Of a stretch of DNA of 64,000 nt, positions 27,662 to 28,041 are shown piece by piece. A program made the position numbers and the translations under genes. Positions within the stretch are counted from its first letter, which is position 1; the number at the start of each line of letters is the position of its first letter. Source of the stretch: Escherichia coli (GTDB lineage Bacteria > Pseudomonadota > Gammaproteobacteria > Enterobacterales > Enterobacteriaceae); NCBI RefSeq assembly GCF_003790525.1, contig NZ_CP033635.1, one strand, 5' to 3'. Under the pieces are notes generated by a model. It had not been told where the DNA came from. It did no database searches and was given only the letters and a program-made list of their open reading frames with translations.

Positions 27662-28041
27662 AATGAATCCTTTTTCGATTTATGAGAATAAATACTCATT
27701 TAAGGGTGAAAACATTTTGCCTGCAAATGATCATCAGGAAATATAACATTATCGAAGTATTCAAATTAACAACTATTAAATAACATTAAACATTTTTAAC
27801 GTAAACATTAAGAATATTCATCTTGTTATCTGTCTGTATTTTAACCAGAATTAAATCAGTATTAGATGCCGTATGAATATCTCGAAATGTTGCTGTGTAT
27901 CACATACAAATTATCACCGCAGGACCATAGTATTTACATAAGGTTTGTCCCCCGGAGGTAGTCATCGCAGCAATCGAGTAAATTAGCTTCACCACGGTAT
28001 ATTGTTTCCGTAGAATACCCATAATTATAAGAGAGGTTGTT

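Follow-up and report, generated by a model that had tools for sequence, protein, structure and literature searches.

In the 64,000-nucleotide stretch of Escherichia coli DNA analysed here (the window), the divergent genes yffB (27305–27661, minus strand) and ypfM (28042–28101, plus strand, 19 aa) are separated by 380 bp. This unstranded spacer, 27662–28041, fills precisely the interval from the yffB start codon (27661) to the ypfM ATG (28042), so that ypfM itself lies outside it. Beyond yffB follows dapE (26174–27301, minus), while on the other side ypfM converges with acrD (28200–31313, minus), with a bidirectional terminator at 28160–28195. The initial annotation had singled out the spacer as unusually long and as the most AT-rich part of the window, and both descriptions hold. 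The GC content of the spacer is 0.316 (31.6%) versus 0.536 for the full window, and it is the longest as well as the lowest-GC of the 50 intergenic gaps, which have a median length of 41.5 bp and of which the next longest measure 292 and 288 bp. For the gap annotation we used the RefSeq record of E. coli SMS-3-5, which differs from the window at 2 positions in 64 kb. The lowest-GC 380-bp frame of the window, 27567–27946 (GC 0.311), overlaps the spacer; the next separate low-GC locus of that size is 42796–43175 (GC 0.368), with no lower frame elsewhere in the window. At the 100-bp scale, the GC content drops to 0.20 at 27742–27841, a value equal to that of 42877–42976. The AT run that had been quoted, ttaaataacatt...cattaag, begins at 27776. 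Second to the spacer in both length and AT content is the gap between eutS and maeB (42819–43110; 292 bp, GC 0.336), which also includes a 100-bp stretch at GC 0.20.

Published E. coli K-12 data can be placed directly on this sequence, as 27640–28210 is 99% identical to K-12 with zero indels. Window position w corresponds to U00096.3 coordinate 2618908 − w, with U00096.2 coordinates 1978 lower, and this mapping was confirmed by the published sequences that accompany transcription start site (TSS) entries. For comparison beyond E. coli, we retrieved 80 enterobacterial yffB loci plus one Salmonella locus. The order acrD-ypfM-yffB-dapE and the long AT-rich spacer are found throughout the Enterobacteriaceae, ypfM is always divergent from yffB across such a spacer, and the YpfM peptide is near-invariant in about 70 loci, while spacer length varies from 200 to more than 1000 bp. 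Within the species, practically all complete E. coli genomes carry the region, with an identity of at least 95%. One record titled E. coli SCPM-O-B-8794 has a YffB only 91% identical to that of the window and a spacer clearly unlike those of K-12 and SMS-3-5. In the literature, polymorphisms of the ypfM intergenic region serve as host markers in a source-tracking paper, and the only mention of the locus in a paper on long-term stationary phase is a background mutation in ypfM/yffB.

Conservation within the spacer is strongly uneven. We aligned the window with 40 loci that have spacers of 349–416 bp (41 sequences) and determined the share of columns that are at least 90% conserved. This share is 87% for the ypfM coding sequence (28042–28101) and 40% for 27964–28041, which comprises the proximal ypfM promoter P1, its leader and an upstream block B. 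The adjoining stretch 27932–27963 has no such columns (0%), but is followed by a second conserved element, block A (27878–27931), with 43% (23/54). Conservation falls to 1% (1/102) in the central AT tract (27776–27877, GC 0.24), and the yffB leader (27662–27733) has 12%.

The product of ypfM is the 19-residue peptide MIERELGNWKDFIEVMLRK, which constitutes Pfam family PF28148 and has been detected by mass spectrometry. The only length variant in approximately 70 loci is found in Lelliottia nimipressuralis, where loss of the stop codon gives a peptide of 30 aa (MIERELGNWKDFIEDMLRNDLQEELQEHLI). Downstream of the gene, the 3′ UTR (28102–28195, plus) contains two hairpins that lead into the bidirectional terminator common to the convergent acrD; it is strongly structured (z = −3.5) and forms part of the STnc250 transcript. 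The Rfam model RF01409 (STnc250) aligns to 28081–28200 end to end (model positions 1–94), with 37.1 bits and E = 8e-5; this score is below the gathering score of 42, yet the locus can be recognised from its synteny and its ORF. In Salmonella, Sittka and colleagues showed that STnc250 is the small ypfM mRNA, which is Hfq-bound, approximately 220 nt long and regulated by growth phase. The Hfq-bound, sRNA-like 3′ end of ypfM might act in trans. The 3′-end tables of Adams et al. 2021 gave no match for ypfM, yffB or the coordinates of the locus.

Upstream of ypfM, P1 (27988–28023, plus) consists of a −35 hexamer TTCACC (27988–27993), a 17-bp spacer and a −10 hexamer TAGAAT (28011–28016), with the start at A28023. 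In a consensus scan the hexamer pair has 9 of 12 consensus positions, and it is kept in most loci across genera. Identical hexamers were reported by Shimada et al. 2014 from genomic SELEX with RpoD holoenzyme. The TSS-seq data of Kim et al. 2012 (Table S1) list a ypfM start at 2588907(−) of U00096.2, which is window position 28023, with 4 reads and a 19-nt UTR, and sigma-70 ChIP-seq peaks of Myers et al. 2013 map to 28027 and 28043. In the latter study, sigma-70 occupancy at ypfM was greater anaerobically (816 versus 322). P1 thus combines consensus-like hexamers, a spacing within 16–18 bp, a start approximately 7 nt past the −10 and sigma-70 occupancy, and is established as the sigma-70 promoter of ypfM. 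The leader carries the ribosome-binding site AGAGAGG (28030–28036, plus). Farther upstream, at −59 to −46 of P1 in the alignment, lies a conserved near-palindrome, ATCGCAGCAATCGA (27964–27977, plus), that could be a second regulator site; in Trabulsiella it becomes a perfect palindrome, AATCACAGTGATT. A conserved TACCCAT (28016–28022) overlaps the P1 start and fits TACYYMT, the NarL/NarP heptamer; beside it we note the 2.5-fold increase in sigma-70 occupancy at ypfM under anaerobic conditions and the presence of narQ two genes off.

In addition to the promoters, the initial annotation had allowed for a small RNA. An independent small RNA or small protein, separate from ypfM, would give a reason for the unusual length of the gap, for an additional start at 27913 (discussed below) and for the mechanical ORFs of 22–33 aa in the spacer. 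However, no Rfam family matches within the spacer at E ≤ 10, STnc250 over the ypfM 3′ end and terminator being the one meaningful hit. A scan of 27500–28300 found terminator-like sites only from 28122 onwards, downstream of the ypfM stop, and none in the spacer. The putative long ypfM leader (z = +1.5) and the yffB leader (z = +1.1) both fold less stably than shuffled sequence, and we reject a structured RNA in either of them. A coding role is rejected as well. The 75-aa ORF antisense to ypfM (27900–28127, minus, TTG start), already regarded as spurious at the outset, is without Pfam match at E ≤ 1, as are all 8 mechanical ORFs searched, and the longest ORF antisense to ypfM varies between 0 and 103 aa over 74 loci; ORF lengths in the spacer are likewise not conserved over these loci. 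RefSeq annotates nothing in the spacer in more than 5400 genomes. A separate gene is therefore highly improbable, and the only sRNA-like RNA at this locus is the ypfM mRNA (STnc250), possibly with a longer second isoform.

The presence of both the ypfM and the yffB promoter in the spacer, as anticipated at the outset, is supported, for ypfM by the mapped start at 28023 and for yffB by a conserved extended −10 element together with a start known from Salmonella. The element, TGTTATATT, is located at 27748–27740 on the minus strand. The exact 9-mer occurs 65–109 nt upstream of the yffB ATG in approximately 32 loci of some 8 genera, and was found in Escherichia, Citrobacter, Salmonella, Enterobacter, Leclercia, Lelliottia, Silvania, Huaxiibacter and Intestinirhabdus. 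A Salmonella study of the sRNA SdsR used a yffB reporter that begins at the mapped start, −97, which follows TGTTATATT by 8 nt. Transferred by homology, this puts the predicted E. coli start at approximately 27732–27733 and gives a predicted 5′ UTR of about 71–72 nt (27662–27733, minus) with a Shine-Dalgarno sequence AAAGGA at 27673–27668. In Salmonella, SdsR represses the yffB leader and early coding sequence. In a Salmonella fur mutant, yffB is 2.6-fold up, and the predicted Salmonella Fur box maps into the yffB leader.

The published E. coli assignment is different. Shimada et al. gave, as a best-match prediction, a yffB promoter TTCATA-16-TTTAAT at 27877–27850 (minus), which lies in non-conserved sequence and is at odds with the start mapped in Salmonella. 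This assignment is probably wrong, and the conserved TGTTATATT the better candidate. The initial annotation would have been contradicted by TSS data with just the two expected promoters and no further transcript; this is not what the one TSS table consulted (Kim et al. 2012) shows, which contains two starts for ypfM and none for yffB. The same table has a dapE start within yffB, at window position 27571 (minus), with 8 reads and a 270-nt leader, and Myers et al. reported a strong sigma-70 ChIP-seq peak in the yffB coding sequence, at window position 27345. Under the conditions of those data sets, dapE seems to be driven mainly from within yffB and may depend little on the yffB promoter.

Between the promoters of the two genes lies the central AT-rich tract (27749–27877, GC about 0.24), which is not conserved between genera and holds both the quoted AT run and the yffB promoter of Shimada and colleagues. 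The suggestion that the spacer could hold nucleoid-protein sites is borne out by published data for H-NS (ChIP-chip and genomic SELEX) and IHF (ChIP-chip). The H-NS regions of Myers et al. translate to 26972–27762 and 27953–28683, leaving 27763–27952 bare, and their IHF region to 27050–27897; Shimada et al. 2014 flagged an H-NS SELEX site in the spacer. With a GC content of 0.24–0.32 and this published occupancy, the spacer qualifies as AT-rich DNA occupied by both proteins. It contains 8 near-matches to the H-NS nucleation motif versus approximately 0.9 expected pro rata, which is not independent evidence because such an enrichment is expected from AT content alone. The spacer has no exact IHF consensus; the nearest, TATCAACGAATTA at 27515–27527 (minus), falls in the coding part of yffB, where the published IHF interval covers it. 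A GC content of 24%, H-NS binding and lack of conservation between genera are also what one would see if the tract had arrived by horizontal transfer and were silenced by H-NS as foreign DNA. Against such an origin stand the gene order and long AT-rich spacer shared across the Enterobacteriaceae and the presence of the region, at 95% identity or more, in essentially every complete E. coli genome; moreover, neither repeats nor mobile-element genes are annotated at the locus. We consider acquisition from outside extremely unlikely. Within the tract, TAAGAATATTCATC (27809–27822) agrees with the RcsAB box at 12 of 14 positions; it is not conserved outside Escherichia and is probably a chance occurrence in AT-rich DNA.

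The sole new feature of the spacer is block A, a 54-bp element (27878–27931, plus) that is deeply conserved and absent from all annotation. Its parts are (C)TCGAAA (27881–27887), TTGC (27890–27893), TCACA (27900–27904), TACAAA (27905–27910; TAAAAT in most genera) and CATAGT (27926–27931). The general pattern is (T)TTCAAAAT(A/G)TTGC-N6-(G/A)TCACATAAAATT-N14-CATA(G/T)T, which in E. coli reads CTCGAAATGTTGCTGTGTATCACATACAAATT...CATAGT. We found it in 58 of 74 loci, of which 51 have 21 nt and 7 have 20 nt between TCACA and CATAGT. From the end of the CATAGT element to the ypfM ATG, the distance is 106–124 nt regardless of spacer length (292–1044 bp), and because this distance is fixed while the spacer varies, block A belongs to ypfM and not to yffB. 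ORFs over block A range from 2 to 92 aa across relatives, so that the element is non-coding. It occurs once, and with no annotation, in 5422 of 5426 complete E. coli genomes, and a BLAST search found no second copy in E. coli.

A transcription start exists inside this element. Table S1 of Kim et al. 2012 gives a weak second ypfM start at 2589017(−) of U00096.2, corresponding to window position 27913, with 2 reads and a 129-nt 5′ UTR; the same table also has many low-count intragenic starts. Position 27913 is 3 nt past TACAAA and 13 nt before CATAGT, an unusual distance from either candidate −10, and the sigma-70 ChIP summits are near P1, away from block A and from the yffB promoter. Transcript sizes provide a second line of evidence. 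In Salmonella, the distance from P1 to the terminator is approximately 145 nt, whereas a start 7 nt past CATAGT would give 226 nt and the equivalent of 27913 approximately 251 nt; a start in or near block A would explain the STnc250 band of approximately 220 nt. The start at 27913 and the size of the Salmonella band together suggest initiation in or near block A, and we lean slightly towards block A being an upstream ypfM promoter and/or a regulator-binding module.

How block A would work can be framed in more than one way. A weak sigma-70 promoter that needs no additional factor (−35 TTCAAA, which is CTCGAA in E. coli, 18 bp, and −10 TAAAAT, TACAAA in E. coli) accounts for the start at 27913, which is just downstream of the TACAAA hexamer, and TTCAAA-18-TAAAAT is the top-scoring consistent hexamer pair over 60 loci. 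A sigma-32-like promoter, CTCGAAA-N12-TCACATAC, would account for the same start: CTCGAAA agrees at 6 of 7 positions with the sigma-32 −35 element CTTGAAA and stands at roughly the spacing of sigma-32 promoters from TCACAT. On the other hand, 27913 is just 3 nt beyond the hexamer, the −10 is degraded in Escherichia, where it is without its final T, and as a sigma-70 hexamer pair block A reaches at most 4.9 out of 8.4, compared to 6.7 for P1. The sigma-32 −10 match is only 4 of 7, and a SELEX paper on the minor sigma factors, RpoH included, has ypfM solely in the RpoS list, with the site within acrD. Either version also leaves the invariant TTGC and CATAGT unaccounted for. We regard this explanation as doubtful, if plausible.

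The invariant parts are accommodated by a class II promoter of the CRP/FNR family, in which a dimer on TTGC-N6-TCACA (centre 27896.5) would activate transcription from CATAGT as the −10 (27926–27931), with no −35 and a start at approximately 27938. TCACA and CATAGT/CATATT are invariant at the 21-nt (51 loci) or 20-nt (7 loci) distance given above, relative to the start that CATAGT would predict, TTGC-N6-TCACA is centred at −41.5, as in class II geometry, and the predicted Salmonella transcript of 226 nt compares well with the Northern band of approximately 220 nt. The growth-phase variation of STnc250 reported by Sittka et al. would be in keeping with such regulation, and one may speculate that glucose minimal medium would silence a CRP-dependent promoter, the exact growth conditions of the sigma-70 ChIP and TSS data being uncertain. 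However, the start at approximately 27938, which we predicted first, disagrees with the published 27913, and is kept only as a rival. With 27913, the sole published E. coli start in block A, the site would be centred at −16.5, more like that of a repressor. As a CRP site (TGTGA-N6-TCACA), the sequence has 7 of 10 positions and a poor left half, which is at chance level (187 found versus 218 expected in the window, with up to 3 mismatches); as an FNR-like site (TTGAT-N4-ATCAA) it has 8 of 10, near chance (39 found versus 28 expected in the window). Myers et al. have neither an FNR ChIP peak nor a predicted FNR site at the coordinates of block A, and the searchable literature that pairs yffB and CRP reports no CRP binding at the spacer. 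Overall, a class II promoter here appears rather unlikely. Comparison of block A by eye with the motifs for Zur, MntR, LexA, OmpR, PhoB, CytR, the marbox, NikR, sigma-54 and sigma-E yielded nothing convincing.

Published Salmonella MarA ChIP-seq data have a peak at this locus whose centre is 56 bp to the ypfM side of its weak marbox. Assuming the same orientation, the peak centre would, tentatively, fall on block A, in which case the marbox assigned to the peak may not be the bound motif. The marbox itself, at 2269–2283 of the Salmonella locus L083, corresponds to approximately 27846–27860 of the window and is in non-conserved sequence. The supplement of the MarA paper holds nothing on the ypfM/yffB locus.

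Taken together, we regard the spacer with good confidence as a conventional pair of divergent promoters within the core DNA of the Enterobacteriaceae, to which H-NS and IHF bind. It is largely documented already, since published work covers the promoter of ypfM, its occupancy by sigma-70, the binding of H-NS and IHF, and what STnc250 is. In the model that we propose, ypfM is transcribed rightward from the proximal, constitutive sigma-70 promoter with its start at 28023 and a 19-nt leader, and probably also from a promoter or regulatory module in block A, which would add a leader of approximately 104–129 nt. Both transcripts would end at the terminator shared with acrD, and the ypfM mRNA is the RNA that was named STnc250, and found to be Hfq-bound, in Salmonella. 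Leftward, yffB (and dapE-ypfN by read-through) would be transcribed from the −35-independent extended −10 TGTTATATT, with a predicted leader of approximately 72 nt that in Salmonella is a target of SdsR. The approximately 130 bp between the two promoter sets, fast-evolving and of 24% GC, would be a landing pad for H-NS and IHF that probably damps both promoters.

The significance of these results is mainly for annotation, i.e., the reassignment of the yffB promoter, the recognition of block A and the dapE start within yffB. Block A in addition offers a concrete handle on the regulation of YpfM, an abundant and near-invariant 19-aa protein. It is possible, though here our doubts slightly outweigh our confidence, that block A is a cis-regulatory module across the Enterobacteriaceae, namely, an additional ypfM promoter that depends on conditions, is bound by a regulator and generates a long-leader, Hfq-associated isoform of ypfM/STnc250. 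If true, this would place a near-invariant 19-aa protein under the control of a specific stress or nutritional signal.

Several features of the spacer resemble known systems. The class II CRP promoter galP1 has one good promoter-proximal half-site and a site centre at −41.5, and served us as a lead rather than as a test. Block A resembles promoters of this type in having a perfect TCACA half-site 21 nt 5′ of a −10-like hexamer and no −35, and differs from them in that its distal half-site is poor, its match is at chance level and the mapped start does not fit the geometry. Like extended −10 promoters (TGnTATAAT), TGTTATATT carries the TG and agrees with the −10 hexamer at 5 of 6 positions, while no −35 can be recognised at a distance of 17 bp; it differs in that its published start is from Salmonella only, activity in E. 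coli being predicted. STnc250 is not in the spacer but just outside, the spacer supplying promoters only, and the E. coli score is below the gathering score, yet the acrD/yffB locus, the 19-aa ORF and the terminator are the same. Finally, Shimada et al. 2014 described H-NS-marked "type-A" divergent spacers with constitutive RpoD promoters. Their yffB promoter at 27877–27850 is non-conserved, in contrast to TGTTATATT at 27748–27740, but the spacer is named among these regions, with the same P1 hexamers and the H-NS mark.
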